DNA of 39,866 nt from an uncultured Gammaproteobacteria bacterium (GCA_964516555.1 CAZFAI010000002.1:1-39866), one strand, 5' to 3'. Positions 951 to 26,711 are shown, counted from the first letter of the stretch. Numbers and translations: made by a program. The notes: generated from the sequence alone by a model not told the origin.

Positions 951-980
951 TTGACTCGGTGTTTTAAAGATGTTTATACT
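951..980 (+). promoter_or_regulatory. Candidate sigma70-type promoter for the surface-protein operon
   Basis: TTGACT (951-956), an 18-nt spacer, then TATACT (975-980), about 40 nt upstream of the ATG at 1022. Sequence pattern only. Confidence 0.3.
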
Positions 981-1021: not shown

Positions 1022-2725
1022 ATGAAAGAAAATTTTGACAAATTTAAGAGAAGTTTAGGATTGGCTCAGATTCCATTGATTATTGGTCTTTTGATTATGG
1101 CAGTAGCAATTCCGGTGGCAACAAAGTTGGTTGAGCAGAATCAGGATACGAGAAATAGAGCGGCGATTCCTCTTCCATCACCTGCACCTAATCCATCTAC
1201 GCCTGTTCCAACTCAAGGTACGGTGACTCCTATACCAGAGGAACAGAATGCCTGTCGGAGGGCTGGTGGTTGGTGTATCCCGACTGGTTCTTCTTGTGTT
1301 AATGGTACAACTACAAGTTCGTTGAGTTGTTACCCTCCCGCACCGGGAAAGTGTTGTATCCCAATAACATCAACCAATACTCCCGCTCCGACTAAACCAG
1401 TATCTACCAACACGCCTCTTCCAACTAAAACTCCAGGGTTGAATACTCCAGTTCCGACTAAACCGGCGACAGTGTTAACCAGTACTCCAGCACCAACTTC
1501 TGCTCCGGCAATGACTTGCTCCTGGTGCACAAATCAAAATCAATGTGCTGCCAGTGGATGTGCCTGGAAGGGAGCTTCATCTTATTGTAGCGTCGCTGGT
1601 GATGGATGCTGTGATTGTGGAGGAGTTGGCGGTGATGACCCTCAACCAAGTACAATATCTTTTAATGGTGTAATGCTTGATCCTAACGGGAGTAACAGAT
1701 GGACTCCGGGAACCAGTTGTTCTAATTTTAAAGGTGGTTCTATCTCAACTACTGCCGGATCTGTAAAGTGGATTTCTGATGAGCACGGTGGTCATTTTGA
1801 TATCTTTAATGTTCCCAAAAACACACAAGTAAAAGTTACATTGATACCTCCCGGTGAATGTGGCTTAACTTGCGATAGGTGGGCCGTTTTTACTCATAGT
1901 AATGGGGCAACTGTGGCCAATGGCAACGGATGTGAGGCTACTTTTACTACCGGAGATTCTGATTGGAAGCACGGTGTAAATTTTTATATGAAAAGAGTTG
2001 TGCCAACAGCAACTATGACACCAATTCCTACTGCTGTACCAAATTTAACTTGGACTATTAATTCAAAGGTTGTATGTCCGGCAGGAAGAACATTAACTAA
2101 GGATGTTCATGTTTTTAATGCAAAATGGCCACCGAATCCACTTGTTTGGAATTTTGATACAGGAAATAGCGGAACTTTTACCGGAGAAGCTAATAGATCG
2201 GTTACCATTAGTAGTAACAATGTTTCAAATAGTGTGTATCTTGGGATGGAAGCTAACTATAAAGTAAGTAAGAATTTGTCGACAGGTAGCACAATTGTTG
2301 ACTATATTGAATTAAAACCAAAAGGCACATCTCCCCATAGCAGTATGATTTTTGGCAGATACTTTAACCCTTATACTCATATGGTCAGGTGGGATCGGAC
2401 ATTGCCCCAGGGTACTTATACAATTGAATTTGAACCTCAGGAGGCACATATGGATATTGTTTGTCCAACGCAATCTACCCCCCCATCTCCTACTGCCGTG
2501 AGTCCAAGACCGACTGTAATATTGTCAGGAATTCCGACAAAAACACTTACCATTTGTGATAAGGCAGTAGAGATAGGATTGGGCGGATGGAAACAACAGT
2601 ACGTCAGTAACAGAGGTCGAAGGGTACAAGGTACTTGGACAGCCGATATAAATAAGGATGGTTTTGTGGACATTATCGACCGGTCAATTATTTTGGGGTG
2701 CTTAATAACAAACAATGTTATGTAA
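1022..2725 (+). CDS. Secreted or membrane-anchored Cys-rich protein with Pro/Thr linkers and one C-terminal dockerin-like repeat
   Basis: N-terminal TM helix (IPLIIGLLIMAVAIPVA). Tandem TNTP-x-PTKP linker repeats. Two Cys-rich modules (aa 78-112 and 166-199). C-terminal DINKDGFVDIIDRSIILGCL resembles an EF-hand or dockerin repeat. Confidence 0.7.
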   Translation: MKENFDKFKRSLGLAQIPLIIGLLIMAVAIPVATKLVEQNQDTRNRAAIPLPSPAPNPSTPVPTQGTVTPIPEEQNACRRAGGWCIPTGSSCVNGTTTSSLSCYPPAPGKCCIPITSTNTPAPTKPVSTNTPLPTKTPGLNTPVPTKPATVLTSTPAPTSAPAMTCSWCTNQNQCAASGCAWKGASSYCSVAGDGCCDCGGVGGDDPQPSTISFNGVMLDPNGSNRWTPGTSCSNFKGGSISTTAGSVKWISDEHGGHFDIFNVPKNTQVKVTLIPPGECGLTCDRWAVFTHSNGATVANGNGCEATFTTGDSDWKHGVNFYMKRVVPTATMTPIPTAVPNLTWTINSKVVCPAGRTLTKDVHVFNAKWPPNPLVWNFDTGNSGTFTGEANRSVTISSNNVSNSVYLGMEANYKVSKNLSTGSTIVDYIELKPKGTSPHSSMIFGRYFNPYTHMVRWDRTLPQGTYTIEFEPQEAHMDIVCPTQSTPPSPTAVSPRPTVILSGIPTKTLTICDKAVEIGLGGWKQQYVSNRGRRVQGTWTADINKDGFVDIIDRSIILGCLITNNVM

Positions 2726-2740
2726 TTAACAGGAAAAACA

Positions 2741-3916
2741 ATGAAAAATAACAAATCATCGATAATCATAATGCTTTTAATGGCGGTAGTGTTAGTGGCA
2801 GTGATGGCGGTAATTAGTGACAGGCAAGAATTGAGAAGAAGCGCTCATTACGCAAAGGGGAGCTTGCATTTAGCACCATCAGAAATTGAAGCAGAAATTG
2901 GTGAAGAGGTGTCGGTGATATTAAAGGCAGTTCCGGGAGTTGATGAGCCAATAATTCAAAACGTCCAGGCACTTGTGTGTTATGACAATAATGTACTTCA
3001 AATTGCGGATACTGAAGATAATGCTATGCAAAAAATTGAAATAATTGATAAGGAGGTTTTTACCGAGGAGCCGATAATATTTTTTGAGGAAATTGCCAAT
3101 AAAAGTTGTGTTAATTTGACTGCAGTAACAAATAAGGCAGGAGAACTTAGCAGTAAAGTTGTTGATGTTGCCAGATTTAAATTTACGACTTTAGCTGAAG
3201 GCAGCGGAAACATTGAAATTATGAAAGGTGATTCGGTAATGTCGGGCTATATAGCTAACAATATGGATAAGAGCATAGAAATTACCACTGTAGAAAATGC
3301 CAGTTATGTAGTAAGTGGGGCTGTTGTTGAGCCGCCAGCGGGTGAAGTGCCTTGGTTAAATTTCAAGATGGCTTTTATGGGTGTAAATAAACAATCGAGT
3401 TGTGCAATGAATTGGCCAATGACACTGACGGTCTTGGGAGATGCTGGTGTAAGTAAGGTGTACAGTAACGTAAGGGGAGAAGTCGTAAGCGGGACTGAAA
3501 ACCCGGTTATTTATGAGGTTAGCTTACCTTTGACAGATTTTGAAGATACTGAGAATGTAGCAGTTCTTATTAAAGGACCAAAACATCTTCAGGTGAAATA
3601 TGCGGTTGATGGCCAAGATGAGTTTTATGGGAAACAGGGGGGTGAGTTAGTGTTAACTAAAGATAAAGAAACAAGTAAGGTTTATGATTTTACAAAATAT
3701 CCGTTATTGGCCGGTGACGTAACTGGGAAAGATGGAAAACAGGATGGGCTGATTAATGGTATGGACTTCTTGTATGTAAGAGATGCGGCAATTGCCAGAG
3801 GGAAAGATTTACCTAATTTGGACAAAGGAGATCTTGACGGTAATTGTGTACACAATTCGTTGGATGTTACTTGGTTAATGCAAGCTCTCGAAGAAAGACA
3901 GGAGCAAATTAATTAA
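2741..3916 (+). CDS. Secreted protein with an N-terminal cohesin-like module and a C-terminal two-repeat dockerin-like module
   Basis: TM or signal helix. The pattern GEEVSVILKAVPG...VQALVCYDNNVLQI...ARFKFTTLAEGSGNIEI matches the cohesin sequence logic. The C-terminus carries GDVTGKDGKQDGLINGMDFLYV and GDLDGNCVHNSLDVTWLMQAL. Confidence 0.6.
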   Translation: MKNNKSSIIIMLLMAVVLVAVMAVISDRQELRRSAHYAKGSLHLAPSEIEAEIGEEVSVILKAVPGVDEPIIQNVQALVCYDNNVLQIADTEDNAMQKIEIIDKEVFTEEPIIFFEEIANKSCVNLTAVTNKAGELSSKVVDVARFKFTTLAEGSGNIEIMKGDSVMSGYIANNMDKSIEITTVENASYVVSGAVVEPPAGEVPWLNFKMAFMGVNKQSSCAMNWPMTLTVLGDAGVSKVYSNVRGEVVSGTENPVIYEVSLPLTDFEDTENVAVLIKGPKHLQVKYAVDGQDEFYGKQGGELVLTKDKETSKVYDFTKYPLLAGDVTGKDGKQDGLINGMDFLYVRDAAIARGKDLPNLDKGDLDGNCVHNSLDVTWLMQALEERQEQIN

Positions 3917-3929
3917 AAAAAGGAGAAAA

Positions 3930-4538
3930 ATGATGAATAATGAATTTGGAAAATATTTACTACCCTTGGTGGCAGTGGTGGTAATTTTGCAAAGTGTTGT
4001 GCTGGTTAATAGTATCCAGGGTGACAGAAGCGCAGAAGTCAAAAGTACAGAGCCGGTGAATAATCAAGTTAAGGTGATAGAAAACAGGACGGAATCATTT
4101 GACATGGTGTTTGGGGTTGAGACAAAAAATATGCAGGTCGGAAAGAAATATTCAGTTGACCTTAGCATGCTTTCTAAGGATGAAAATAAGGTTGGTACCG
4201 TTGATTTGTATGTGAAGTACGATCCTAGCGCCTTTGAGGTCAGCAATTTGGGATATGATTCAAAGCTGCAGAAGCCAAATGTTTTGCTTTCTGGAGAAAA
4301 GAAGGGAATGATGGTAGTTAACTATTATTCAATGGATCCTAGCGGATTCTTATTTAGTAAGGCGGAACACTATAGTTTGATAACTTTTGATGTAATACCA
4401 AAAAAGGAAGGTAATTTTGAATTTGAAGTTAGTACTGGTAATGTAAATGATGGTTCTGTTACCATGATTCTAGACAATAATACAAAGAAGGAAATGCTCT
4501 TTACGAGCAACAAATTAACTGTTAATGTAACTAAGTAA
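3930..4538 (+). CDS. Small secreted cohesin-like protein
   Basis: Signal or TM helix, then VGKKYSVDLSM...VGTVDLYVKYDPSAFEVSNL...ITFDVIPKKEGNFEFEV (cohesin-like pattern). Its TAA shares one nt with the next ATG (TAATG). Confidence 0.55.
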   Translation: MMNNEFGKYLLPLVAVVVILQSVVLVNSIQGDRSAEVKSTEPVNNQVKVIENRTESFDMVFGVETKNMQVGKKYSVDLSMLSKDENKVGTVDLYVKYDPSAFEVSNLGYDSKLQKPNVLLSGEKKGMMVVNYYSMDPSGFLFSKAEHYSLITFDVIPKKEGNFEFEVSTGNVNDGSVTMILDNNTKKEMLFTSNKLTVNVTK

Positions 4539-5236
4539 TGAGATACAAAAAAGCTGCAATTATTTGCTTTATATTTATGATTTTTGCCATGGCAAAGGGC
4601 GGGGTAGCTAGTGCTGCGCCTCATTTTACTTTGACTCCTGCAACTTACTCGAGTTCGGTTGGGAGTACTTTTGTGGTTGACCTTGGAGCTGATTCCGAGA
4701 CACAGAGCATAATTGCGATGGATGTAGTAGCCACTTTTGATCCGGCCAAGTTAGAGGTGGTGTCGGTAGAAAAGAACAATACGACTGACTTTAGTTTTAT
4801 ATTCGATTCAACTACTCCAATTATTCAAAATACTAACGGAAGGTTTGAGGTAACGTTAAGCCCTACTAGTTCCAGTGTTTACGACGGTCAAATTGTGAAG
4901 GGTAGTTTACTTCGGATAAAATTAAAAGCTAAATCAGCAGGTGTGGCAAGTTTAAATTTATCATGCCAGGCGGGTTCGGTAACTGACACCAACATGTTCA
5001 ATCAGAATTCGGAAGATGTAGTTAGCTGTGCGGCTAATCAGAGCGGATCATATACCCTGACTGCAGTTGGTGGTGATTCTACTGATACAAATACTACAAC
5101 AACAACGACAGATACTACTACAACTAGTACTACTAGTAGTGAATTACCACAAACCGGAGGCATAGCTTCAACATTAGGTTTGTTGGTTTTTGGAACAATC
5201 AGTGTGTTAGGCGCTCTATTGTTGAGATTTTTATGA
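4538..5236 (+). CDS. LPXTG cell-wall-anchored cohesin-like protein
   Basis: Signal peptide (AKGGVASA-AP). Cohesin-like VGSTFVVDLGA...AMDVVATFDPAKLEVVSVEK...LRIKLKAKSAGVASLNL. Poly-Thr stalk. LPQTG at nt 5144-5158, followed by a hydrophobic helix and an R-containing tail. Confidence 0.75.
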   Translation: MRYKKAAIICFIFMIFAMAKGGVASAAPHFTLTPATYSSSVGSTFVVDLGADSETQSIIAMDVVATFDPAKLEVVSVEKNNTTDFSFIFDSTTPIIQNTNGRFEVTLSPTSSSVYDGQIVKGSLLRIKLKAKSAGVASLNLSCQAGSVTDTNMFNQNSEDVVSCAANQSGSYTLTAVGGDSTDTNTTTTTTDTTTTSTTSSELPQTGGIASTLGLLVFGTISVLGALLLRFL

Positions 5237-5940
5237 AAGGAAAAGCAAACGTAAAGACCATTATTGTAATGGTAATTATGGTTTTGGTGGTGGTGTTGGG
5301 TATTTTGGGTGCTAAAACCGTTCAAACTTACTTGAGTGGAGCTACGGAGGATGTAATGCCCAGAAACGTTGTAGCTACTGCCAATGAAGATGGCAGGGGA
5401 GCTGTAATATCATGGATGTCTGATAAGGAATCGATGGGTGTGGTGGAATATGGTACTTCTCCTGCGTCATTGTTATTAAGAGCGCTCGAAACTAGCCAGG
5501 TAACTAGTCATCAAGTGACACTGTCGCCATTAAAGTCAGGAACTACTTATTATTTTAGGGTAAAGATTGGAGAAGAGATATATGACAATAGCGGGATACC
5601 GTATTCTTTTAAGACCAAAGAATCTGAGTCTGAGTCAGAGCGGGTGATGGAGCCAGATGTAACACTTGAGCCGACAATGCCAACACAAGTCGGCAGCGGG
5701 AGTAGTGTTATTTCGGGAACATGTAATAAAGAAACAGATTACAATAGCGATGGAACAGTAAATGCTTTAGATTATATTCAATGTATAAAGGGTAGCAGTG
5801 TGGCTCCAACAAGTGCTCCAGCACCCGCAACTTCGGCAACTGAAAGCAGCGGGAGTACATGTAAACCGGGAGTTGATTATGATAATAATGGATCTATAAA
5901 TAGTTTGGACATGATCAAGTGTTTACAAAACCAGAGATAA
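5233..5940 (+). CDS. Secreted FN3/PAP-N-like domain protein with two Cys-flanked dockerin-like repeats
   Basis: TM helix. AVISWMSDKESMGVVEYGTSP...SGTTYYFRVK is an FN3-like pattern. Repeats: CNKETDYNSDGTVNALDYIQCIKG and CKPGVDYDNNGSINSLDMIKCLQN. ATGA overlap with the upstream gene. Confidence 0.65.
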   Translation: MKGKANVKTIIVMVIMVLVVVLGILGAKTVQTYLSGATEDVMPRNVVATANEDGRGAVISWMSDKESMGVVEYGTSPASLLLRALETSQVTSHQVTLSPLKSGTTYYFRVKIGEEIYDNSGIPYSFKTKESESESERVMEPDVTLEPTMPTQVGSGSSVISGTCNKETDYNSDGTVNALDYIQCIKGSSVAPTSAPAPATSATESSGSTCKPGVDYDNNGSINSLDMIKCLQNQR

Positions 5941-5979
5941 TAGGTAAAATATTGCCTATTAACTAAAGGAGGTGACTTA

Positions 5980-6195
5980 ATGCCAATTATCGTAAAGAAG
6001 AAAAAAGGTGAAAGTAAGGATGATGTAATCGGTAAATTCCGGAGACTTTGCCTTGAGGAAGACATTACTGAAGAAGTAAAGAAGAGGACTGCTTATAGCA
6101 AGCCATCCGAGGGAAGATACGCAAAGAAGAAAATAATCTTGTGGAAAGAGAAATGTCGCAAGAGAGCTAAAAATTCCAGGAAGTATGTCTCTTAA
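5980..6195 (+). CDS. rpsU: 30S ribosomal protein S21
   Basis: MPIIVKKKKGESKDDVIGKFRRL...; basic, 71 aa; strong SD AAAGGAGGTGA upstream. Confidence 0.9.
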   Translation: MPIIVKKKKGESKDDVIGKFRRLCLEEDITEEVKKRTAYSKPSEGRYAKKKIILWKEKCRKRAKNSRKYVS

Positions 6196-6628
6196 GGACA
6201 AGATTAAATCAGACAGTGTGATTGCATTAAAACAGCATGAAAGCCGAAAGGTGGAAGTATTGAGGTATCTGGTGTCACTTATTGACAAAAGAGAATTGCA
6301 GCTTCCACCAGGAGGGATGAATGAGAAAGAAGAGGTTAGTGTGTTGCGTAAAGAGCTAAAGAATAAGGAAGAATCCAGAGGGTTGTCTGAAGAGGCCAGT
6401 AGAAGCGACTTGGTAGAAGCTTTGGATTATGAGATTGAAGTGGTAAAGGGTTATCTGCCTTTAGAGATGAGTGAGTCAGAGTTAAGGGCTATTGTTGATG
6501 AGGTGGTGGATAGGGTGGGATTAAATTTTGGCTTAGTAATGAGAGAAGTTATGATGAAAATAGAAGGAAGGGCTAGTGGGGATACCGTGTCAAGAATTGT
6601 TAAGGATAAATTAAGTGAGCAGGGATAA
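6185..6628 (+). CDS. GatB/YqeY domain protein
   Basis: LKDKIKSDSVIALKQHESRKVEVLRYLVSLIDKRE and the C-terminal half are typical of the YqeY family. The position after rpsU is also typical. Confidence 0.8.
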   Translation: MSLKDKIKSDSVIALKQHESRKVEVLRYLVSLIDKRELQLPPGGMNEKEEVSVLRKELKNKEESRGLSEEASRSDLVEALDYEIEVVKGYLPLEMSESELRAIVDEVVDRVGLNFGLVMREVMMKIEGRASGDTVSRIVKDKLSEQG

Positions 6629-6986
6629 CATTGATATCTTAATTAAAAAAGCTGTTAACACCGGGGTAAATTCCGATGAAGTTGAGGAGCTGTCAAAGAA
6701 AGCTTTAAAAGAGAGGGGTTATAGCAAGGATGTTGAGTTGAGTGTGATATTTGTGGGTAGAAAAAAGGCAAAAGAATTAAACCAGTTATATAGAGGGATG
6801 GATTATATTCCTCAAGTATTGGGTTTTCCGATGTCGCGGGAAAAGGATGCTGACGGAAAGATTCGGCTTGGAGATATTGTGATATGTACTCAGAAACTTA
6901 AATATGAAGCGAAGTATCAAAAAAAAAGCGAAAGGCAAATTTTGGGTGAATGGTTAGCCCATGGGTTAGACAATTTATTGAAGTGA
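6615..6986 (+). CDS. ybeY: YbeY-like protein (rRNA maturation RNase family), short, without a complete His triad
   Basis: LSVIFVGRKKAKELNQLYRGMDYIPQVLGFPM...GDIVIC aligns with the YbeY core. The protein ends at ...EWLAHGLDNLLK, where HGxLHLxGYDH is expected. GTG start. Confidence 0.55.
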   Translation: MSRDNIDILIKKAVNTGVNSDEVEELSKKALKERGYSKDVELSVIFVGRKKAKELNQLYRGMDYIPQVLGFPMSREKDADGKIRLGDIVICTQKLKYEAKYQKKSERQILGEWLAHGLDNLLK

Positions 6987-7028
6987 TATAAAAAAGACTA
7001 ATTGCTAAGTGGACTGGGGTTTGCTTAA

Positions 7029-8591
7029 ATGGGTTTGATGTCAGTTTTTCATTTGAAATATCGGCCACTGAAAATATCAGATTTAGATTTGATTGATGTA
7101 TCCGAAAAATTTAAGAGTATTCTGAGCAACAAAGAAGTACCACAATCATTTCTTTTTGCCGGACCAAAAGGATCCGGAAAGACTTCGGCGGCCAGAATAT
7201 TGGCCAGAGCTGTAAATTGTGAAAACAAGACGGGTGTCGAACCTTGTGGAGAATGCGGAAATTGTAAGGAAATATTAAGCGGAGCAAGTATTGATGTGCT
7301 GGAGTTGGATGCGGCTTCGAATAGGGGAATTGAGGATGTTAGATCACTTAAAGATAAAGCTTATTTACTGCCAAGTAAACTGAAAAAAAAGGTGTTTATT
7401 ATTGATGAGGTTCACATGATGACCAAGGAGGCATTTAATGCTTTATTGAAGCTGATTGAAGAGCCACCGGCACATACTATGTTTATTCTGTGCACCACAG
7501 ATGCTGAAAAGATACCAGAAACGGTGTTGTCAAGGCTAGTGAAGGTAGATTTTCGGAAGGGATTGAAGGAGGAGTTGATTAAGTCGCTGAAGCGAGTGGT
7601 TGAGGGTGAAAAAATATCGATGAGTGACGAATCCTATGATTTAATTGTCAGTAAAAGCGATGGGAGTTTTCGTAATGTCCACAAATCTTTGAACGAAATT
7701 GTTCTTTTGTATGGCAATAAAATTAATAAGGAAGTTGTAGAAAAATATTTTAGTCAAAAAGGAGGAGATTATAGTGAAAATGAGTTTGAAGATGATTTGA
7801 TAGCAGGTGATCCGTCTGTAATTTTGAAAAAATTAGAAAAGTTAGCTGATAAAGGGGTTAATTTTAGTGACTTTCGGGAGCGGTTGATTAGCTATTTTCA
7901 AAGGAGGGTACTGACCGTCTATGGACTTGGAGAAGCCAGGGTTGAAGGGTTGGCGGTTAGGGATATTGTTAGAATGATTAACTTATTGATTTTGGCCAGC
8001 AGGAAAGAAAAAGATGTTAGTATTGATCAATTACCGCTTGAGCTGGCAGTAATTGAATATTTAGGGGAAAGACGAGGAGAAAGTGGTAAAACAAATCAGG
8101 ATGAATCTGAGAAAAAAGAAGTGAAAATTGAAAAGAAGGTCGATAATAAGAAGAAAAAAACAGTAAAAATAATCCAGAAAACGAAGGTTGTTGAAAGTAT
8201 GGCAATTAAGAATGAAGAGAATCTGACGGTGGGGATGAATGTGGTCGAAGATTCTTGGGGAAAAGTTTTGTTGGCGGTTAAACCATTTAATCATTCGGTG
8301 GAAGCATTTTTGAGAGCGGTTAAACCAAAAAAGATTAGTGGTGATTGTTTGGTGGTTGAAGTGTTTTATCCTTTTCATAAAGAGAAATTGGAAGAGAGCA
8401 AAAACAGAAGGATTGTTGAGGCTGGCTTGAAGAAAGTGTTTGGTTTTGATATTGGTTTTGAATGTGTTTTGAGTAGAAATAGCAAGAAGGCCATTGTCAT
8501 TACTAATGAAACACCGGTGGAGGATATTGAAAGTAGAGAGAAGGGTGGAGATAAAGATATGTATGATGTAGCTAAAGAGATTTTTGGTTAG
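7029..8591 (+). CDS. dnaX: DNA polymerase III subunit gamma/tau
   Basis: Walker A GPKGSGKTS, Zn module CGECGNC, Walker B FIIDEVHM, sensor LSRL. Confidence 0.9.
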   Translation: MGLMSVFHLKYRPLKISDLDLIDVSEKFKSILSNKEVPQSFLFAGPKGSGKTSAARILARAVNCENKTGVEPCGECGNCKEILSGASIDVLELDAASNRGIEDVRSLKDKAYLLPSKLKKKVFIIDEVHMMTKEAFNALLKLIEEPPAHTMFILCTTDAEKIPETVLSRLVKVDFRKGLKEELIKSLKRVVEGEKISMSDESYDLIVSKSDGSFRNVHKSLNEIVLLYGNKINKEVVEKYFSQKGGDYSENEFEDDLIAGDPSVILKKLEKLADKGVNFSDFRERLISYFQRRVLTVYGLGEARVEGLAVRDIVRMINLLILASRKEKDVSIDQLPLELAVIEYLGERRGESGKTNQDESEKKEVKIEKKVDNKKKKTVKIIQKTKVVESMAIKNEENLTVGMNVVEDSWGKVLLAVKPFNHSVEAFLRAVKPKKISGDCLVVEVFYPFHKEKLEESKNRRIVEAGLKKVFGFDIGFECVLSRNSKKAIVITNETPVEDIESREKGGDKDMYDVAKEIFG

Positions 8592-8641
8592 GAAGGTGAT
8601 AAAATGAATAATTGTTATAAGTTTCTGTTTGTAAATTTCTT

Positions 8642-8890
8642 ATGTTTGACAAAGCAAAAATGTTGGCTCAAGCCATGAAATTAAAGAAAGCAGTTGAGGC
8701 TGAGACTGTTGAGGTGGAGGCAGGTGGAGTTAAGGTGGTGGCTAGTGGTGATCAGAAGGTTAAGTTTCTGTCAGTTGACGGAGTGGAGAACAAGCTATTG
8801 GTAGATACAATAAATAAGGCATTAAAAAAGTCCCAGGAAGTAGCTGCCAAGAAAATGAAAGACATGGGTGGCCTGGAAGGGTTGTTTTAA
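8642..8890 (+). CDS. ybaB: YbaB/EbfC nucleoid-associated protein
   Basis: Size, the conserved dnaX-ybaB-recR order and the pattern VEVEAGGVKVVASGDQKV. Confidence 0.8.
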   Translation: MFDKAKMLAQAMKLKKAVEAETVEVEAGGVKVVASGDQKVKFLSVDGVENKLLVDTINKALKKSQEVAAKKMKDMGGLEGLF

Positions 8891-8899
8891 TTAATAACA

Positions 8900-9511
8900 A
8901 TGGCCCAATTTCCATCAGCAATTAGTAAGCTGATTGCAATGTTTGAAAGATTGCCAGGGGTAGGACCAAAAAGTGCGACCAGGTTGGTATTTTATTTGCT
9001 AAATACTCCGGAAAGTTTTGTAAAGGAATTTTCGGAAGCTCTTCTGGAGTTTAAGAGCAAGATTAAGATATGTAAACAGTGTTTTTCGGTAAGTGAGGAT
9101 GATTTATGTGATATTTGTAAGCAAGGAGACAGAAAAATGAATATAATTTGTGTAGTGGAGAGAGCGATTGATGTAATGGCGATAGAAAATACGGGTGGCT
9201 TTCGAGGGGTCTATCATGTTTTGGGGGGTGTGATAAACCCATTGGAACATGTGGGACCGGATGATCTTAGGATTGATGAGTTATTAAATAGGATAAGAAA
9301 TACTTCAGAAAAAGATGTGGAAATCATTTTAGCAACAAATCCGACAATGGAAGGTGAGGCAACGGCTCTGTATATTAAAAAACAAATTGAAGGATTAAAT
9401 AAGGAGATAAAAATCAGTAGGATAGGAAGCGGTTTACCGATTGGAGCAGATTTGGAATATGCTGATGTCAGTACTTTGAGCAGAGCACTGGAAAGCAGAC
9501 AGTCAATTTAA
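8900..9511 (+). CDS. recR: Recombination protein RecR
   Basis: LPGVGPKSATRL helix-hairpin-helix, C4 finger CKQC...CDIC, and a Toprim segment. Confidence 0.95.
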   Translation: MAQFPSAISKLIAMFERLPGVGPKSATRLVFYLLNTPESFVKEFSEALLEFKSKIKICKQCFSVSEDDLCDICKQGDRKMNIICVVERAIDVMAIENTGGFRGVYHVLGGVINPLEHVGPDDLRIDELLNRIRNTSEKDVEIILATNPTMEGEATALYIKKQIEGLNKEIKISRIGSGLPIGADLEYADVSTLSRALESRQSI

Positions 9512-9523
9512 TATAGTTTAGTT

Positions 9524-10015
9524 ATGAAAAAAATTATTGGAAATACAATTAAAGCTTTGGGTGAGTTAACGGTTGAAACAGGGAGTGAGGCAGTAAAACA
9601 AGGTATAAAGGTGATGGAAATGAGTGGGCAGGAGCTGCTTTCCGATATTAAAGAGTTGAGCGAGGAAGAATTGGAGAAAAAAAGGAAGGAAGATGAGATG
9701 AAAAGACAAGAAGAAGAAAGTAGTTTAAAAAGCCAAATACAGGGGAAAATGGATATGGAAGGGGAGATGAAGGATTTGAGAAAAGAAGAAGCGGATGCGG
9801 AAAAAGAAAGAGAAGAAGAATTTTTGGAGAATATCAGAAGACAGAGGGAGGCTGAAGAAGAGGAAAGAAGGCAATTTCTGGCCACTCATGAGAGCAGTAG
9901 CCCGGGCAAAAGAAAGAAGAAGAGAGGAAGTGCCTTTGCCAGAGGTAAGCAAGGACAGGCTTCAATTTCTGAAATGTCAGCTACATCAGAGTTTCCCAAG
10001 AAATCTGATTCTTAG
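9524..10015 (+). CDS. Hypothetical Glu/Lys-rich (coiled-coil or low-complexity) protein
   Basis: Long ORF in operon register between recR and cysS. The polypurine coding tract leaves other frames open as well, so only the operon context supports this frame. Confidence 0.45.
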   Translation: MKKIIGNTIKALGELTVETGSEAVKQGIKVMEMSGQELLSDIKELSEEELEKKRKEDEMKRQEEESSLKSQIQGKMDMEGEMKDLRKEEADAEKEREEEFLENIRRQREAEEEERRQFLATHESSSPGKRKKKRGSAFARGKQGQASISEMSATSEFPKKSDS

Positions 10016-10030
10016 GATATAATCAAGACA

Positions 10031-11416
10031 ATGAGTAGTAAAGTGTATTTGTATAACACTGCCAAGAGAAAGAAAGAAGAATTTAGGCCTATTGCCGGAA
10101 AAAAGGTGGGTATTTATTCGTGTGGGCCGACCGTTTATTCCAATCAGCATATCGGCAATATGTATGCCTATGTTGTTTGGGATGTGTTTGTAAGATTTTT
10201 GAGGTATGCAGGTTATGAGGTTTTGTGGGTGATGAACATAACTGATGTAGGACATATGACATCAGACCAAGATGAAGGTGAAGATAAGCTGGAAAAAGGA
10301 GCAAAACAAGAAGGGATATCACCCTGGGAGATTGCTAAAAGATATGAAAAACAATTTATGGAAAGCTTGGAGATGCTTAATATCGAAAAACCGGACCATT
10401 TACCCAAAGCTACAGAGCATATAGTAGAGCAGATTGAATTGGCCAAAAAGATCGAAGATCGGGGTTTTGCTTATATGACAAAAACGGGATTAGTTTTCGA
10501 TACCAGTAAATTTGAGAATTATGCTGATTTTGCTAACTTGAAATTGGAAGAAATGGAATCGGGTGCCAGGGTTGAAGTGGACTTGGAAAAAAAGAAACCA
10601 TGGGATTTTTTGTTGTGGGTGATTAATCAACCCGAACACGTAATGAAATGGGAATCACCTTGGGGCGAGGGGTTTCCGGGTTGGCATTTGGAATGTAGTG
10701 CCATGTCGACAAAATATTTAGGAGAAAAATTTGATATTCACACGGGAGGGATAGAACATATCGGAGTCCATCATACTAACGAAATAGCACAAGGATATGG
10801 TGCTTTTGGAAAGGAAACTGCCAACTACTGGCTTCATAACGCCTGGTTGACGTTGAAAGATGAGAAAATGAGTAAATCTCTGGGAAATGTTTATACAGTA
10901 GGACAATTGATGGAAAAGGGATATGATCCATTGGCTTTCAGATATTTAATTTTGACCTCACATTATAGAAAAGGGTTGGTGTTTTCTTTTGAATCTTTGG
11001 AAGCAGCTGGAAGAGCACTAAGCAGATTAAAAAAGTATGTTAGTGAATGGAAGAAACAAGGTTTGGGTGCGGTGAACAAAGATTATAAAAAGATGTTTAT
11101 TGAAGCTGTAGCTGATGATTTTGCCATGCCTGAGGGGATGGCAGTAGTGTGGAAGTTGGTAAAAGATGCTAATTTAAGCGATGGGGATAAACTGGCAACT
11201 TTACTTGATTATGACTTAGTCTTGGGCTTGAGGTTGTCCGAGACGGAAGAGTTGGAGGAAAAAATTCCCGCGGAAATAGAGAGACTAGCGGATGAAAGAC
11301 AAAGAGCCCGGGAGAATAGGGATTGGTCTAAAGCCGATGAGTTAAGAGAGGTGATTTTGAGTAAAGGTTATTTAGTTGAAGATGTAGGTAACGGTAGTGT
11401 AATTCGAAAAAAATAA
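10031..11416 (+). CDS. cysS: Cysteinyl-tRNA synthetase
   Basis: CGPTVYSNQHIGN (HIGH region), KMSKSLGN, WHLEC. Confidence 0.95.
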   Translation: MSSKVYLYNTAKRKKEEFRPIAGKKVGIYSCGPTVYSNQHIGNMYAYVVWDVFVRFLRYAGYEVLWVMNITDVGHMTSDQDEGEDKLEKGAKQEGISPWEIAKRYEKQFMESLEMLNIEKPDHLPKATEHIVEQIELAKKIEDRGFAYMTKTGLVFDTSKFENYADFANLKLEEMESGARVEVDLEKKKPWDFLLWVINQPEHVMKWESPWGEGFPGWHLECSAMSTKYLGEKFDIHTGGIEHIGVHHTNEIAQGYGAFGKETANYWLHNAWLTLKDEKMSKSLGNVYTVGQLMEKGYDPLAFRYLILTSHYRKGLVFSFESLEAAGRALSRLKKYVSEWKKQGLGAVNKDYKKMFIEAVADDFAMPEGMAVVWKLVKDANLSDGDKLATLLDYDLVLGLRLSETEELEEKIPAEIERLADERQRARENRDWSKADELREVILSKGYLVEDVGNGSVIRKK

Positions 11417-11458
11417 AAAATTGTAATACTGAGGATAATATGTTAATCTAGAGCGTTT

Positions 11459-11752
11459 ATGAATGACAAAAATCAATATCAAATAATCTCGGTTTTTAAC
11501 CCAAAAACTGAAGAAAAGGAAAGGGACGAGGTATTAAAAAAAATTACCTCTTGGGTCGAAGAACAGAAAGCAGAGATCAATAATTCAAATCATTGGGGTA
11601 ACAAAGAATTGGCTTATGAGATAAATGATCTAAAAAAGGGTGATTTTTGGATTATGGATGTTGAAAGTGAAAAGCCCTTGGATGTCAGAAATTTTAATGT
11701 ATTTTTAAATAGAGAACCTAAAATTATTCGTTATTTAATTTTGAAAAAGTAA
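11459..11752 (+). CDS. rpsF: 30S ribosomal protein S6
   Basis: Conserved rpsF-ssb-rpsR operon context and the pattern YQIISVFNP...WGNKELAYEI. Confidence 0.85.
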   Translation: MNDKNQYQIISVFNPKTEEKERDEVLKKITSWVEEQKAEINNSNHWGNKELAYEINDLKKGDFWIMDVESEKPLDVRNFNVFLNREPKIIRYLILKK

Positions 11753-11761
11753 GGAGAAAAT

Positions 11762-12319
11762 ATGCCTAGTCGATGTTTAAATCGAGTGATGTTAATTGGT
11801 AATTTAACCCGTGATCCGGAATTGAGGTACACCCCAGGTGGGATGGCGGTGACTTCTTTTGGGTTGGCTACTAATCGGGTGTGGGTAACGAAGCAAGGTG
11901 AGAGAAAAGAAGATGCCCAGTTTCATCGAATAGTTGCCTGGAATAAGTTAGCTGAATTATGTTCCCAATTATTAAGCAAGGGAAGAAGGGTTTTTGTTGA
12001 GGGTAGGATTCAATACAGAGAAATTACTGATCAGCAAGGTGTTCGCAAACAAGTTTCTGAGATCGTTATTGACGATATGGTTATTCTGGATAACAAAGGT
12101 GTTCCGTCCAATGAAGCAAGAGGAGACGTGGATATGGGTGGAAGTGAAGATGTGGCCGTTGCTTCTAATGACAATGGAAAAATTGAAGATATTGTAATTC
12201 CAGATGAAATTATGGATGATGGAGAGACTGAAGTTAAAAGTGAGGCGAGTAGCAATGAAGTTTCTGCAGAACAGCCAGCTTCTACTGACGAAAAGCCAGA
12301 AGAAGAAATGCCCTTCTAA
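11762..12319 (+). CDS. ssb: Single-stranded DNA-binding protein
   Basis: OB-fold NRVMLIGNLTRDPELRYTPGG and an acidic tail ending EEMPF. Confidence 0.9.
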   Translation: MPSRCLNRVMLIGNLTRDPELRYTPGGMAVTSFGLATNRVWVTKQGERKEDAQFHRIVAWNKLAELCSQLLSKGRRVFVEGRIQYREITDQQGVRKQVSEIVIDDMVILDNKGVPSNEARGDVDMGGSEDVAVASNDNGKIEDIVIPDEIMDDGETEVKSEASSNEVSAEQPASTDEKPEEEMPF

Positions 12320-12339
12320 ATTAAATAAAGGAAAAGAAA

Positions 12340-12579
12340 ATGCCAAGACCAAAAAAACCAATGATGATCCAAGTCCGATCAAAAGAATGTCAGTTTTGTA
12401 AGACAGGTACAGTACCCGCCTGGCAGGATTATGATGTTTTGAAGGACTATTTATCCTCAAGAGGTAGGATACTTAGTTCCCATTACACCGGTGTGTGTGT
12501 CAAACATCAAAAGCAGTTAGCTAAAGCTATAAAACAGGCTAGACATTTGGCCTTGATTCCTTTTACGACTCAAGAGTAA
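12340..12579 (+). CDS. rpsR: 30S ribosomal protein S18
   Basis: CQFCK...DYLSSRGRILSSHYTGVCVKHQKQLAKAIKQARHLALIPF. Confidence 0.9.
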   Translation: MPRPKKPMMIQVRSKECQFCKTGTVPAWQDYDVLKDYLSSRGRILSSHYTGVCVKHQKQLAKAIKQARHLALIPFTTQE

Positions 12580-12594
12580 AGTTTAATTTGACAG

Positions 12595-12630
12595 AAAAAA
12601 CCCTCCTTAGATAAAAGGAGGGTTTTTGTT
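12595..12630 (+). terminator. Rho-independent terminator after rpsR
   Basis: Stem CCCTCCTT (12601-12608) pairs with AAGGAGGG (12615-12622). 6-nt loop, T-tract 12623-12627, A-tract upstream. Confidence 0.7.
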
Positions 12631-12639
12631 TATAATTAG

Positions 12640-13395
12640 TTGATGAGGCAAAAAAAAATAAGAGCCAAGTGGGTGGTAAAAATGCCGGAGGATGCTGTTT
12701 TGAGGGTAAAAAAAGGTAGTAGGGTGGGAGGAGGGGATGTCCTTATGGAAATACGGCAAGGTAGTGTTGAGGTGATTGATATGTCGGTTGTTTTGAGAGA
12801 AATTAAGATTGGTGAGGAAGATAGTTTTCGAAGCACCTGGCTGAACAAGGAAGTAGCGGAGGGGGATGTTTTGATAAAAGGTAGTGGGATGTTTCCGAAG
12901 ACTATAAGGTTTCCCAGTAGCGGTGTATTAAGAAAAATTGATGAGTTTTTTAATTTCGAATTTTGGCATAAGAGCGAGGAGGTAAAGGAAGTAAAAAGTC
13001 CGGTTGGAGCGAAGGTATCTGAGGTGGGGAGTGGCAAAATGATGTTGGAATTTGAGGCTTATGAATATCGTGGAGAGGGATTAGTTTTGGGCAAAACATG
13101 GGCTGGCGGTCCAATAAAATGTATCAGAAGAATCAGCGAGATGGATCATACAATGTACGGTAAGATTGTAGCCATGGAGGATTTTAATCAAGCTATGTTT
13201 ATGAAGGCTGAGGTCTTAGGAGTGAAGGGGGTAATTATAATTGGGGAAGTATTGGGTGAAATTAGATCGGGGTTACCGGTATTGGCGATAAACATGGAAG
13301 AATGGGGTAAATTAGATATTGTAAACAAGGAAAACTCTAGCTTGAAGATACTAATGAATTCAAAATTGGGAAGATTATTGGTCGTGGTAGAATGA
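12640..13395 (+). CDS. Hypothetical protein, translationally coupled to the S41 peptidase gene
   Basis: ORF of 251 aa ending in an ATGA overlap with the next gene. The start is uncertain (TTG 12640, ATG 12643 or ATG 12682). No family recognised. Confidence 0.5.
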   Translation: MMRQKKIRAKWVVKMPEDAVLRVKKGSRVGGGDVLMEIRQGSVEVIDMSVVLREIKIGEEDSFRSTWLNKEVAEGDVLIKGSGMFPKTIRFPSSGVLRKIDEFFNFEFWHKSEEVKEVKSPVGAKVSEVGSGKMMLEFEAYEYRGEGLVLGKTWAGGPIKCIRRISEMDHTMYGKIVAMEDFNQAMFMKAEVLGVKGVIIIGEVLGEIRSGLPVLAINMEEWGKLDIVNKENSSLKILMNSKLGRLLVVVE

Positions 13396-14591
13396 AAGAA
13401 TCGATGAAAAAAATAAGAAATTTATTTTTAGTTTTTGCTTTGGTAGCTATTACTTCAGCGATAAGTTTTAGCATTGGTAAAACACAAAGAAGGTCTGTGG
13501 CAGGTGAAGAATTAGATTTGTCTTTGATGTGGACGGTTAAGGATATGCTTCATGAAAAATTTTTGGATAAGGAAGATATGGATGAAAAGCAGATGACTTA
13601 TGGAGCAATTGCAGGAATGGTAGAAGCATTGGGGGATCCCTACACGGTATTTTTGCCTCCAAAAGAGAACAAAAGTTCGAACGAGGATTTGGCCGGAGAA
13701 TTTGGCGGGGTAGGTATCCAGTTGGGATATAAAGACAAAACGTTGGCGGTGATGTCACCGCTTCCGAGAACGCCGGCAGAATTAGCCGGTGTAAAGGCGG
13801 GCGATTTGATATTGAGAATTAAGGATTTGGAGAAGAATATTGACCGGGATACAGTCGGAATAAGTTTGGATGAAGCGGTAGAGGTGATTCGAGGAAAGAT
13901 TGGGACTGAAGTAACATTGACGATGCTTCGCGAGGGCGGTAATGGGACTTTTGAAGTGACCTTAAAAAGAGATAATATTGTAGTTTCAAGTGTTGAAATG
14001 GATTGGAAAGAGTTGGATAACAAGAAGGTGGCTTGGTTGAGGGTCTACAAGTTTACCGAAAGATTAAATACTGAGTGGGATGAAGCAGTGAAAAAAATTA
14101 ATACTGAAAAAGGAGCAGATTATGGCGGAGTCGTACTTGACTTGAGAAATAATCCGGGCGGTTATTTACAGGGAAGTGTTTTGGTGGCGTCAGATTTTTT
14201 GAATGACGGGGTAGTTGTTAAGCAAGAGTCGTATGATGGAAAGGTTGAAACGTATTCTGTGGATAAAAAAAGAAGGGGATTGCTGGATGATAAACTGATA
14301 GTTTTGATAAACGGAGGTTCGGCTTCAGCTTCAGAAATTCTAGCCGGGGCACTAAGCGAATATAGTAGAGGAAGGTTAGTTGGAGAAAATTCCTTTGGTA
14401 AGGGGACTGTCCAACAACCGGAAGATTTCAGGGACGGTTCAGGATTGCATGTTACAGTAGCAAAATGGTTGTTACCAAGTGGGAAAAATATTCACAAGGA
14501 AGGTGTAGCTCCGGATGTGGAGGTAGTTGATGATAGTGAAACTGAAGTTGATGAACAACTTGAGAGGGCCATGCAAATACTACTTGAGTAG
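13392..14591 (+). CDS. ctpA: S41 family C-terminal processing peptidase (CtpA/Prc-like) with a PDZ domain
   Basis: FGGVGIQL, PDZ segment AGVKAGDLILRI, NPGGYL, INGGSASASEILAGAL. Confidence 0.9.
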   Translation: MKESMKKIRNLFLVFALVAITSAISFSIGKTQRRSVAGEELDLSLMWTVKDMLHEKFLDKEDMDEKQMTYGAIAGMVEALGDPYTVFLPPKENKSSNEDLAGEFGGVGIQLGYKDKTLAVMSPLPRTPAELAGVKAGDLILRIKDLEKNIDRDTVGISLDEAVEVIRGKIGTEVTLTMLREGGNGTFEVTLKRDNIVVSSVEMDWKELDNKKVAWLRVYKFTERLNTEWDEAVKKINTEKGADYGGVVLDLRNNPGGYLQGSVLVASDFLNDGVVVKQESYDGKVETYSVDKKRRGLLDDKLIVLINGGSASASEILAGALSEYSRGRLVGENSFGKGTVQQPEDFRDGSGLHVTVAKWLLPSGKNIHKEGVAPDVEVVDDSETEVDEQLERAMQILLE

Positions 14592-14615
14592 CAATAAAAA
14601 GTTATTATAATTAAT

Positions 14616-15797
14616 TTGTATATGGAAGCAAAAACAGTAAAGGGATTTCTATTAGGCTTATTATTGGGGGCAATACTGGTGACAGGTGTAGTTGGCGGTG
14701 CGGTAGCGGATAGACTGGTTGGTTTGGAATTCTTAGATAAGTTGTTAATTAGGCGTGACACACAAGGACGGGTAGTTACGGCAAATCGGGAGCTTGTTAA
14801 CGAAGAGTCGGTGGTTACCAGAGTTGTAGAAAATGCAACTCCGAGTGTGGTGACCGTATCTATGAGTAAGACTCAAGTATTTAACACAGATCCGTTTGAT
14901 TTTTTTGGTAGCTTTTTTGGGATTCCAAGAGGTGAAACAAGACAGGAGAATGTCGAGCAGGATATTGGAACCGGATTTATTATTTCAGAAGATGGCTTGA
15001 TTGTAACCAACAAGCACGTGGTGTCTGACAGTAGTGCCAAATACAGGGTGGTAATCGGTAAAGACGAGGTAGTTGAGGTAGGTCAGATATATCGTGATCC
15101 TACAAATGACTTGGCGATCTTGAAGATAGATAAAACGGGTTTAACTCCGGTGACCATGGGAGATTCAAATGAACTTAAAGTAGGCCAGACAGTGATCGCT
15201 ATTGGTACGGCTTTGGGAGAATTCCGATCGACAGTAACAACCGGGGTGATTTCAGGTTTAGGCCGTGGTATTGTAGCAGGTTCACCTTTTAGTGGATCAG
15301 AAAAGCTTGATAATGTGATTCAGACAGATGCGGCTATCAATCCAGGGAACTCGGGAGGCCCGCTTTTTAATAGTTCAGGTGAAGTGGTGGGAGTAAATGT
15401 GGCAGTATCGCAAGCCGGACAAAACATTGGATTTGCCTTGCCGATTAATTTGGTTAAAGATTCAATTGATAATTTTAAAACAACAGGAGCTTTTGACAGA
15501 CCCTACATAGGAGTATCTTATAGAACAATTTCTAGACAAGCAGCATTATTAAACGAAGTTCCTGCCGGGGCATTTGTACAAGAAGTTATTGCAGGTAGTC
15601 CGGCAGAAAAAGCGGGAATTGAAGTTTCGGATATTATTGTAGAAATGGATGGAAAGAGACTTACTGATGATGAGAATTCTTTGACTGAAATTGTTAACAA
15701 AAAGAAGATTGGTGACACCATAAGAGTAAAGCTTTGGAGAGACGGTGAAGACATGACAGTTGATGTAAAACTGGAAAAAAGAGATATGAGCAGTTAG
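14616..15797 (+). CDS. htrA: HtrA/DegP family serine protease with a C-terminal PDZ domain
   Basis: TNKHV, DLAILKI, GNSGGPL, and PDZ segment [20 protein letters not shown]. Confidence 0.9.
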
Positions 15798-18239: not shown

Positions 18240-18935
18240 TTATTGCTTGGGTGTCGGGGTTGGAGTGGGAGAGCTTACTTGAAATATTTTTGAGGCGTAA
18301 AAGGTTTTAGCCATGGATGGATGAGGTATGATGATGCAAATCATGCGCTGTCCGGTTTGGATGTCGGTTGAAGTTAACTTTTTGTTATTTTTGTCAACAA
18401 AAATAGTTTTGGTGTCGGTGGTAATTTGATATTGCTGGTCTTTGTTTTGATTGGGAATCAGGACAAAAACCGGTGAAGAAACTGAGGCGTCGACTACATT
18501 GCCGACAACAACTTGTTCGGGTGATTCCAGAGTTTTTATATCAATGAATACTATTCTTTTGGTATCCAGAAGGGTAGGTTCAGTCATGTAACCCATGGCT
18601 AAAACATCCTGTCCAGTAGTAAGTTTGTCGAGTTGAGTTTTATTTCTTTTGGTATCAATGAAGGTAGTTTCGCTGTCAACAATTAGGGTTAAGCTTTGTG
18701 AGTTGTGAGTAATTTGAATTTGGTTATCGGTGATTTGAGTGACGGTTCCAATGAATCCTTTGCGGGTAGATTCAGGATTGGTAATGTCCTTAATTTTTTC
18801 CATTACTTTATCCTGTACGGCTTGGCGGATTTTTTGAACTTCCTCAAGATTGGACGGTTTGGGAGTAGGAGTGTTAGCGTAGACGGGAGAAACAAAATTT
18901 AGAGTTATTAATAGGGTTATGAGTGAAAATATCAT
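18240..18935 (-). CDS. Secreted hypothetical protein
   Basis: Signal peptide MIFSLITLLITLNFVSPVYA. Repeated beta-rich segments. Pro/Thr C-terminus (PTPTPTPKQ). Confidence 0.55.
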   Translation of the reverse strand: MIFSLITLLITLNFVSPVYANTPTPKPSNLEEVQKIRQAVQDKVMEKIKDITNPESTRKGFIGTVTQITDNQIQITHNSQSLTLIVDSETTFIDTKRNKTQLDKLTTGQDVLAMGYMTEPTLLDTKRIVFIDIKTLESPEQVVVGNVVDASVSSPVFVLIPNQNKDQQYQITTDTKTIFVDKNNKKLTSTDIQTGQRMICIIIPHPSMAKTFYASKIFQVSSPTPTPTPKQ

Positions 18936-18938
18936 AAG

Positions 18939-19406: not shown

Positions 19407-19467
19407 ACTTTTTTGTTTTGATAAATGATAACACATGATTGTTTGAAGTGATGTTAGAATTACATAT

Positions 19468-26422: not shown

Positions 26423-26711
26423 TTAATTTTTATAATTATTTAAAAATTTTGTTTTTTATTTCTTTAAAATAAAAGTATCGATATTTTATTTTGATCATTT
26501 TGTCCTCCGACGACGGCTTACTACTTATTTTTTGTCTAGCCTTAAATTTGATTATTGACTCCCCTTTAGGTAAATTTCGGAGAGTGAGTATAAAATAAGC
26601 CTAAAAATAGGTAAAATAAGGCTAAGACGTCACCAGAGCCCCTGTAACAAAAGATTTTTAAAATCATGATAACTAATTCGTTAATATTTCGAAATAGTGT
26701 TAAGATTTATT

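Follow-up and report, generated by a model that had tools for sequence, protein, structure and literature searches.

A putative sortase-anchored, enzyme-free cohesin-dockerin operon conserved in Shapirobacteria/Microgenomates

What kind of surface structure would a bacterium build from cohesin and dockerin modules when no recognisable enzyme accompanies them? The question is raised by an operon in a 39.9-kb stretch of DNA (CAZFAI010000002.1:1-39866; hereafter the window, meaning the whole stretch that was analysed), where five plus-strand open reading frames (ORFs) are packed within positions 1022-5940. Their products are P1 (1022-2725, 567 aa), P2 (2741-3916, 391 aa), P3 (3930-4538, 202 aa), P4 (4538-5236, 232 aa) and P5 (5233-5940, 235 aa). 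A preliminary description of this DNA had reported five same-strand genes separated by gaps of 15 and 13 nt and then by overlaps of 1 and 4 nt, a spacing that was reproduced exactly from the ORF coordinates; the two overlaps point to translational coupling and stoichiometric expression of the operon genes. We consider it probable, though well short of certain, that these genes encode a ScaE-like, sortase-anchored and enzyme-free cohesin-dockerin scaffold on the Shapirobacteria/Microgenomates cell surface, which displays a variable adhesin.

Cohesin and dockerin modules of the operon

Against the Pfam Cohesin family (PF00963, curated cut-off 24.1 bits), P4 scored 36.6 bits over a module at 4616-5068, P3 scored 23.4 bits (E = 7e-5), slightly under the cut-off, and P2 gave no direct match. 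In hhalign profile alignments, the N-terminal domain of P2 matched the P4 family (probability 95.6%, E = 1.1e-8) and P3 (probability 67%), and P3 matched P4 weakly (probability 6%); a comparison of the P3 sequence profile with the PDB found no cohesin. Because sequence profiles were uninformative for P3, structure prediction was needed to settle its identity. The AlphaFold2 (AF2) model of P3, which like all our AF2 runs rests on a shallow alignment (8-13 sequences), had a predicted local distance difference test (pLDDT) score above 90 over residues 53-202 and forms, as predicted, a nine-stranded β-sandwich (jelly-roll) that superposes on solved cohesins. Among its Foldseek matches in the PDB, all of the best 50 listed were cohesins of types I, II and III, non-cellulosomal ones included (best E = 3e-11), at TM-scores of 0.7-0.8, with 0.78-0.80 for the best of them. 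The corresponding module of P2 (residues 40-193, 2858-3319) was modelled with a pLDDT of about 75-93 and superposes on single cohesins at TM-scores of 0.66-0.74. Together these searches and models show three cohesin modules in the operon, in P2, P3 and P4, the same three products to which the preliminary description had assigned them. In P3 the single cohesin (4098-4535) is joined to an N-terminal transmembrane (TM) helix (3951-4013) by a flexible, disordered tether of about 25 residues.

Dockerins consist of two tandem repeats of about 22 residues, each with a 12-residue Ca loop (D or N at positions 1, 3, 5, 9 and 12) followed by a helix. P5 scored 27.0 bits against Pfam Dockerin_1 (PF00404, curated cut-off 22.9 bits), and its profile (A6) matched PDB dockerins (2y3n_B, E = 9e-4). 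The repeats lie at 5722-5784 and 5860-5922. In their loops, DYNSDGTVNALD and DYDNNGSINSLD, the Ca ligands are canonical, and conserved Cys bracket each loop. Across 11 orthologues the Ca-loop residues and all four Cys vary little or not at all, and the Pro/Thr/Ser linker between the repeats varies in length. Upstream of the repeats, P5 has a conserved N-terminal helix (5251-5313) and an FN3-like domain (5359-5619); the latter, a kind of domain proposed earlier for the dockerin-bearing proteins, scored over the cut-off for Pfam Pur_ac_phosph_N, at 41.3 bits.

The P1 dockerin occupies residues 509-567 (2546-2722), with a degenerate repeat 1 and an intact repeat 2 whose Ca loop, DINKDGFVDIID, lies at 2645-2680. 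Searched against the PDB, the C-terminal family profile of P1 (A7) matched only dockerins (22 matches, best E = 9.5e-5), the single-loop ScaH group-2 dockerin 8ajy_B being among them. Pfam Dockerin_1 matched 7 of 12 P1 orthologue C-termini (best E = 4.6e-5), and two clear repeats are present in distant orthologues. Single-loop dockerins are functional in Ruminococcus flavefaciens, where they, like normal dockerins, bind the sortase-anchored ScaE cohesin (PMC12270676). In P2 the dockerin (residues 322-391, 3704-3913) has a first loop enlarged by a 5-residue insertion (GDVTG-x5-DGLINGMD, 3713-3766) and a second loop, DLDGNCVHNSLD (3830-3865), that is canonical except for an invariant Cys at position 6, the usual place of Gly. 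The P2 profile (A2) matched the dockerins 8x39_A (E = 2.4e-5), 5nrk_B (0.0024) and 1ohz_B (0.0027), and the PDB matches of the P2 and P1 C-terminal profiles taken together were almost exclusively dockerins.

A strict form of the Ca-loop pattern matched three times in the six-frame translation of the whole window, once in P1 and twice in P5, with the ligands at positions 1, 3, 5, 9 and 12 all present in P1 repeat 2 and both P5 repeats; the LPXTG motif matched once, in P4. Since both kinds of match are confined to the operon, they are features of the locus rather than background. Profiles and loops together indicate three dockerin modules, in P1, P2 and P5. Of the loop repeats that the preliminary description had ascribed to these products, both in P5 stand, P1 has a single intact loop and P2 falls outside the strict pattern.

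Between its cohesin and its dockerin, P2 carries an Ig-like, X-like β module (residues 203-321, 3347-3703), supported by alignments A2 and A4 and by Foldseek with the whole model. This X module and the dockerin are the most conserved half of the protein and include a PKHLQVKY motif. The best Foldseek matches of the whole P2 model were the Coh9-X-DocII structures of CipA (3kcp_A and 4fl4, E = 4e-11). Given these matches and those of the single modules, P2 reads as a TM or signal helix followed by a cohesin, an X-like Ig module and a dockerin, and the modelled protein is of the adaptor type, with a cohesin-X-dockerin (Coh-X-Doc) arrangement. One invariant Cys in the X module (Cys221) and another in the dockerin (Cys369) may form a disulfide within the X-Doc unit. 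Three P2 orthologues (L016:7638-9356, L009:8098-9372 and L013:7949-9325) have small Cys-rich modules (C-N-T-x-T-G-x-Y-x-C ... C-E) inserted between cohesin and X module, several copies of them in L016, and similar Cys-rich knots occur in P1 linkers.

Wall anchor, N-termini and the variable head of P1

The P4 C-terminus comprises, in order, a poly-Thr stalk (5069-5143), LPQTG (5144-5158, located by six-frame motif scan) and a hydrophobic helix with an Arg (5159-5233), the last being a 22-residue hydrophobic stretch followed by RFL. This is the layout of an LPXTG substrate, with motif, hydrophobic helix and positive charge. P4 scored 20.5 bits against Gram_pos_anchor (PF00746, cut-off 20) and 13.9 bits against TIGR01167, under the cut-off of 15.9, and L203, P204, T206 and G207 are invariant in 20 homologues. 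At the level of sequence these features show that P4 carries a sortase sorting signal. The earlier claim of a sortase substrate holds in its motif and helix, while the 'basic tail' that it included is a single Arg. Homologues of P4 are named in their source records as 'cohesin domain-containing protein [Patescibacteria group bacterium]' and 'LPXTG-motif cell wall-anchored protein', and sortase is reported to be near-ubiquitous in Microgenomates (PMC6744442).

A hydrophobic segment opens all five products, as expected from the earlier proposal that each starts with a signal or TM helix; AF2 places helices at residues 5-34 of P2 and 6-31 of P3, and P4 begins with a classical signal peptide (4538-4615) ending in A-S-A. 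By these predictions, all five proteins are exported or membrane-inserted. In P1, residues 13-47 (GLAQIPLIIGLLIMAVAIPVATKLVEQNQDTRNRA, 1058-1162) combine a conserved hydrophobic segment with a QNQ-x-x-R-x-x-A motif; they probably serve as signal or anchor and include a cleavage region. The first ~45 residues of P1 (GLAQIPL...LVxQNQDTRNRA) are 52-78% identical among orthologues whose remainder is unalignable. The motif (V/L)-x-Q-N-Q-(D/E)-x-R-(R/N)-x-A stands directly after the N-terminal helix in both P1 and P2 orthologues (window 1058-1162 and 2756-2845), and a scan of all fetched ORFs found the post-helix QNQ motif only in the P1 family, the P2 family and one Cys-rich paralogue (L010:2044-2970).

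Beyond its conserved N-terminal helix, P1 consists of Cys-rich and Thr/Pro-rich linkers, a hypervariable β-rich head and the C-terminal dockerin. Direct reading of the sequence places two Cys-rich mini-modules (residues 77-114 and 164-201), with a Thr/Pro-rich linker between them, at 1250-1624; P1 has 22 Cys in total. The variable head follows at 1625-2545. A sister contig (L001, from SRR27370453) is 99.5% identical in nucleotide sequence to the window over 2553-15236, and upstream of 2553 the two share no nucleotide similarity except a 29-nt linker match (window 1478-2552 compared with L001:1-1084). The break falls where the P1 dockerin begins (residue ~511). The metagenomes SRR27370453 and SRR8925753 contain both alleles. 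As proteins, the heads of the window and of L001 are 34-38% identical, and the L001 head is 59% identical to that of L008, although P2-P5 of L008 are only 66-78% identical to those of the window. Among more distant genomes, P1 heads have at most short local matches in common. Gene 1 ranges from 414 to 1167 aa among loci, with the lengths of genes 2-5 kept.

The sharp boundary at 2553, with an unalignable head next to a 99.5%-identical dockerin, marks the head on sequence comparison as a swappable allelic cassette on a constant plug. Taken with the constant first ~45 residues, P1 reads as an export or anchor segment, a cassette head and a constant plug. Because the L001 head is nearer to that of L008 than to that of the window, head alleles appear to move between lineages, and the preservation of the P1 dockerin at 99.5% nucleotide identity beside a replaced head implies selection on the plug itself.

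Pfam found no domain of any sort, catalytic ones included, in the head of window P1 or in those of ten P1 orthologues, where the sole match to the whole proteins was one weak dockerin. The window head gave nothing in NCBIfam, and P1 had no significant match among PDB sequences by phmmer (best E = 2). Pfam likewise found no catalytic domain in P1, P5 or the ten P1 orthologues, and no glycoside hydrolase (GH), carbohydrate esterase (CE), polysaccharide lyase (PL) or carbohydrate-binding module (CBM) domain in the five operon proteins or the ten P1 orthologues, in agreement with the earlier statement that the operon has no glycoside hydrolase.

A proposed assembly and its alternatives

Those checks suggested in the preliminary description that were run all favoured its interpretation, and nothing that it had named as a refutation was observed. 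These data allow us to propose a mechanism of assembly. A sortase encoded elsewhere in the genome would link P4 covalently to peptidoglycan, and P4 would then act as the anchoring socket, by analogy with ScaE of R. flavefaciens. P2 would be the adaptor scaffoldin, its X-Doc dyad plugging into P4, and its fast-evolving cohesin would hold the fast-evolving dockerin of P1 so as to leave the variable head outermost. P3 would provide a second, membrane-tethered socket, probably for P5 with its FN3 domain and dockerin. Joined by Ca-dependent plug-and-socket contacts, these proteins would build a short stalk. The distal P1 head could be exchanged by recombination with the plug untouched, and it would most likely bind a partner or host cell surface, or a substrate. 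The particular cohesin-dockerin pairings are hinted at by analogy and by a weak co-evolution signal. In mirror-tree and partial Mantel comparisons, the P2 dockerin and P4 cohesin gave the highest value of the nine pairs (partial r 0.73), and evolutionary rates match for the P1 dockerin and P2 cohesin and for the P2 dockerin and P4 cohesin. In a cultivated Saccharibacteria epibiont, one protein with a dockerin domain was found to be essential (PMC10633639).

Several observations weigh against this scaffold. The window copy of P1 alone reaches 12.2-15.2 bits on Dockerin_1 and the single P2 sequence 14.9 bits, both under the cut-off of 22.9; the first Ca loop has been lost in window P1, the window's clade keeping repeat 2 only; the dockerin part of the P2 AF2 model is of low confidence (pLDDT 30-50); and the P5 repeats are held apart by an unusually long, flexible linker of 25 residues. 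No sortase was found in the window or the fetched orthologous neighbourhoods (345 kb in total, the window included) by a six-frame motif scan of the window, by phmmer and motif scanning over the 829 ORFs of the 345 kb, or by Pfam on 20 further window ORFs, the phmmer query being a possibly approximate sequence of Staphylococcus aureus SrtA. The mirror-tree comparison was not cleanly discriminating, with small permutation p-values for many pairs. For P1, P2, P3 and P5, conservation of the N-terminal helix far exceeds that of ordinary signal peptides, and these helices may do something beyond what we propose. Finally, we infer the adhesion or partner-contact role only from the lack of enzymes and the variability of the head.

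The same modules could belong to independent surface proteins that share building blocks, in which the cohesin-like domains serve as Ig-like spacers or ligand binders, the dockerin-like domains serve as Ca-stabilised caps or bind other partners, and no complex forms within the operon. Cohesin-like and dockerin-like modules also occur outside cellulosomes, in many cases with no identified partner, and cohesin-like modules of this kind were among our Foldseek matches (Archaeoglobus fulgidus 2xdh; Clostridium perfringens 2jh2 and 2vo8). The divergence of the dockerins, with a low-confidence model for P2 and a single loop in P1, would also fit independent proteins. This explanation is nonetheless unlikely in our judgement, given that sockets and plugs match three to three, that the genes co-occur strictly in fixed order at all orthologous loci and appear translationally coupled, and that P2 has the Coh-X-Doc architecture of an adaptor; selection on the plug, as implied by a dockerin that is 99.5% identical in nucleotides beside a replaced head, argues in the same direction.

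Two further explanations dispense with a cohesin-dockerin stalk or arm it with enzymes. Pilins or fibre subunits with pilin-like N-terminal helices might be assembled by sortase-catalysed polymerisation or, as in the Pam pili of the Candidate Phyla Radiation (CPR), by donor-strand exchange. Pam pilins, present in Microgenomatia, have a nine-strand β-sandwich N-terminal domain and an Ig-like C-terminal domain, and their pili are built by donor-strand exchange with PapD-like chaperones that have C-terminal TM helices, in an ATP-synthase context (bioRxiv 10.64898/2026.03.03.709456). The nine-strand sandwich and Ig-like module of P2 resemble these pilins, the hydrophobic N-termini of P1, P3 and P5 show unusual conservation, and some pilins of Gram-positive bacteria turn up low among the Foldseek matches of P2. 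Identity with Pam pili, judged by their published description, seems improbable, as the operon has no PapD-like chaperone with a C-terminal TM helix and differs in having no ATP-synthase neighbour. A sortase pilus was set aside with a single LPXTG protein and no sortase in the operon, and a type IV pilin or pseudopilin with no N_methyl match at E<=1 in Pfam, no G-F-T-L-I-E motif and, in P1, a conserved G followed by L-A-Q-I-P with no Glu at +5. Any pilus is in our view very improbable, given that the sandwich domains specifically match cohesins and that there are C-terminal dockerins. Less probable still is a minimal degradative, mini-cellulosome-like complex, in which the P1 heads would be novel hydrolases acting on polysaccharide or host cell wall. 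Dockerins classically tag enzymes, a GH39 gene adjoins one copy of the operon on the opposite strand, and with heads that have no annotation at all a novel catalytic fold is conceivable. Against this, no catalytic Pfam domain was found in P1, P5 or ten P1 orthologues, P1 has no significant PDB sequence match, and heads that give way to mostly unrelated ones from lineage to lineage are more in keeping with recognition modules than with a conserved enzyme.

Returning to the sortase-anchored scaffold, we also put forward, tentatively and as something rather more doubtful, that it is an apparatus for host or partner recognition. A wall-anchored P4-P2 chain and a P3-P5 chain of sockets would remain constant, the P1 head would be a receptor-binding part exchanged as a cassette, and the break would fall exactly at the dockerin boundary. 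If so, the plug-and-socket design would serve rapid retargeting, like swapped phage tail-fibre tips. As a sub-variant, the Cys-bracketed single loops of P5 might be independent mini-dockerins that cross-link the P3 membrane socket to the P4 wall socket.

Lineage, neighbourhood and relation to known systems

Nine loci were found in a scan of species-representative genomes, and the plausibly named ones are Candidatus Shapirobacteria, Microgenomates or Patescibacteria; one orthologous locus sits on a 998-kb Microgenomates contig (JBAQNJ010000001.1). These orthologous loci place the source lineage in Shapirobacteria/Microgenomates and thus in Patescibacteria, which bears out the earlier suggestion of a small-genome bacterium. 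The records of three loci in TPA bins (L008, L010 and L015) bear the title 'uncultured Gammaproteobacteria bacterium'; the synteny of the operon in them is fully Shapirobacteria-like, and these titles are almost certainly wrong.

All five genes were found, in unchanged order, in 11 genomes or contigs, among which P4 identity falls as low as 38%, and a check of the distant member L019 found the same operon. In the window it is wedged between rseP and rpsU-yqeY-ybeY-dnaX, all core housekeeping genes, and this is also the usual position of the orthologous operons. With the P2 family profile as query, a full HMMER scan found 259 proteins at E<=1e-30 among 1.84 billion representatives, and 764 at the looser E<=1e-10; many of the matches are full-length. 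The P2 family alone forms hundreds of 50%-identity clusters. From the fixed gene order, these counts and the housekeeping flanks, the operon can be read as a widespread, vertically kept feature of the clade amid housekeeping genes.

In the 98-nt gap between rseP and P1 lies a promoter-like site, TTGACT-18-TATACT (951-980, plus strand), which is a consensus match only; a promoter and terminator scan of the region gave no more such sites than expected from shuffled sequence. A 71-aa ORF directly after the operon (5980-6195) encodes ribosomal protein S21, PF01165 being recorded on its positional orthologue in L019. The only enzyme seen beside any copy of the operon is the product of the GH39 gene mentioned above (L007:4382-5695), which lies between rseP and gene 1 and is read from the opposite strand. 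A 10-kb extension beyond the window's right end, made in a sister contig, found no sortase but a type IV pilus set with two T2SSE ATPases, T2SSF and an N_methyl pilin, ~6-10 kb past that end (L017:15836-20477). On the minus strand of the window, 33404-34375 encodes a 323-aa protein matching Thioredoxin_4 (DsbA/MdbA-like), which may be the disulfide-forming enzyme for the Cys-bearing exported proteins of the operon; P2, P4 and P5 have conserved Cys pairs, and MdbA-like proteins are reported to be enriched in CPR (PMC6744442). Two adjoining minus-strand ORFs of 231 and 191 aa (18240-19514), the latter with a sub-threshold match to Glucodextran_B (Ig-like), may be further surface proteins. A tyrosine recombinase with Phage_integrase and SAM-like domains (26697-27650) is XerC/D-like or a mobile-element integrase, and the lowest GC content of the window (0.35-0.37) is at about 24-28 kb. 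GC skew of the plus strand is very strong (+0.23 to +0.49) over 1-27 kb, where most genes are on that strand, and is still positive (+0.06 to +0.13) over 28-38 kb, where genes are on the minus strand; an unusual strand-composition disparity has been reported for a Microgenomates genome (PMC7143001).

The nearest architectural parallel to P4 is ScaE, a single cohesin followed by an LPXTG signal and covalently anchored to the wall by sortase (PMC12484212). P4 shares the single cohesin and LPXTG, the P1 family profile matches the group-2 dockerin of ScaH (8ajy_B), and the ScaE cohesin 2zf9 is among the structural matches of P3 and P2. In contrast to the R. flavefaciens cellulosome, however, the operon is without carbohydrate-active enzymes (CAZymes), CBM and a multi-cohesin primary scaffoldin; it consists of five small genes, in one operon, in a Patescibacteria genome of roughly 1 Mb, and its cargo is a hypervariable head with no recognisable enzyme domain. 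Its modules are only 10-18% identical in sequence to cellulosomal modules. In P2, a cohesin, an Ig-like X module and a C-terminal dockerin follow one another as in Coh9-X-DocII of CipA from Clostridium (Acetivibrio) thermocellum (3kcp, 4fl4), an arrangement by which a scaffoldin is docked onto an anchoring cohesin. P2 differs from CipA in its one cohesin, its N-terminal membrane or signal helix, its enlarged first dockerin loop and the Cys at loop position 6, and its domain arrangement does not superpose (root-mean-square deviation of about 21 Å).

The A. fulgidus 2xdh and C. perfringens 2vo8/2jh2 modules, cohesin folds from outside plant cell-wall degradation that are among the structural matches of both P3 and P2, are scattered on enzymes or single proteins, whereas the operon has a closed 3+3 set together with its sortase anchor and variable head. 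Pam pili (PamA/PamB of Ca. Mycosynbacter amalyticus; PDB 25PZ, 25QA) likewise come from a CPR-specific surface operon with β-sandwich and Ig-like proteins, disulfides and a proposed host contact, but are without cohesin, dockerin or LPXTG, and their pilins have a truncated Ig C-terminal domain. The P1-P5 operon differs from the Pam operon as described in its N-terminal helices, dockerins, LPXTG and its rseP and rpsU-yqeY-ybeY-dnaX flanks. By analogy, the operon would work like the anchoring end of a cellulosome, with a sortase-anchored cohesin, a Coh-X-Doc adaptor and dockerin-tagged cargo. From its sequence it is not a cellulosome, as the dockerin-bearing CAZymes that define one were not found.

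Non-cellulosomal cohesins and dockerins are already known, as is the labelling of P4 homologues as cohesin proteins in databases. No account of a cohesin-dockerin system in Microgenomates or CPR was found in the searchable literature, and no description was found there of the closed five-gene 3+3 operon, its conservation in Microgenomates, its cassette-like head or its divergent dockerin forms, which by sequence are the Cys-bracketed split repeats of P5, the single loop of P1 and the enlarged loop of P2. For protein engineering, the operon would supply a naturally occurring trio of small cohesin-dockerin pairs that may be orthogonal.

To our knowledge, most Patescibacteria are uncultured, and little is known of how they attach to their partners beyond type IV pili and Pam pili. 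If the sortase-anchored scaffold is correct, the cohesin-dockerin principle would exist in this lineage as a complete, enzyme-free structural kit of covalent wall anchor, adaptor and hypervariable distal head, and its proteins would be tangible candidates for the determinants of partner specificity in these uncultured bacteria.

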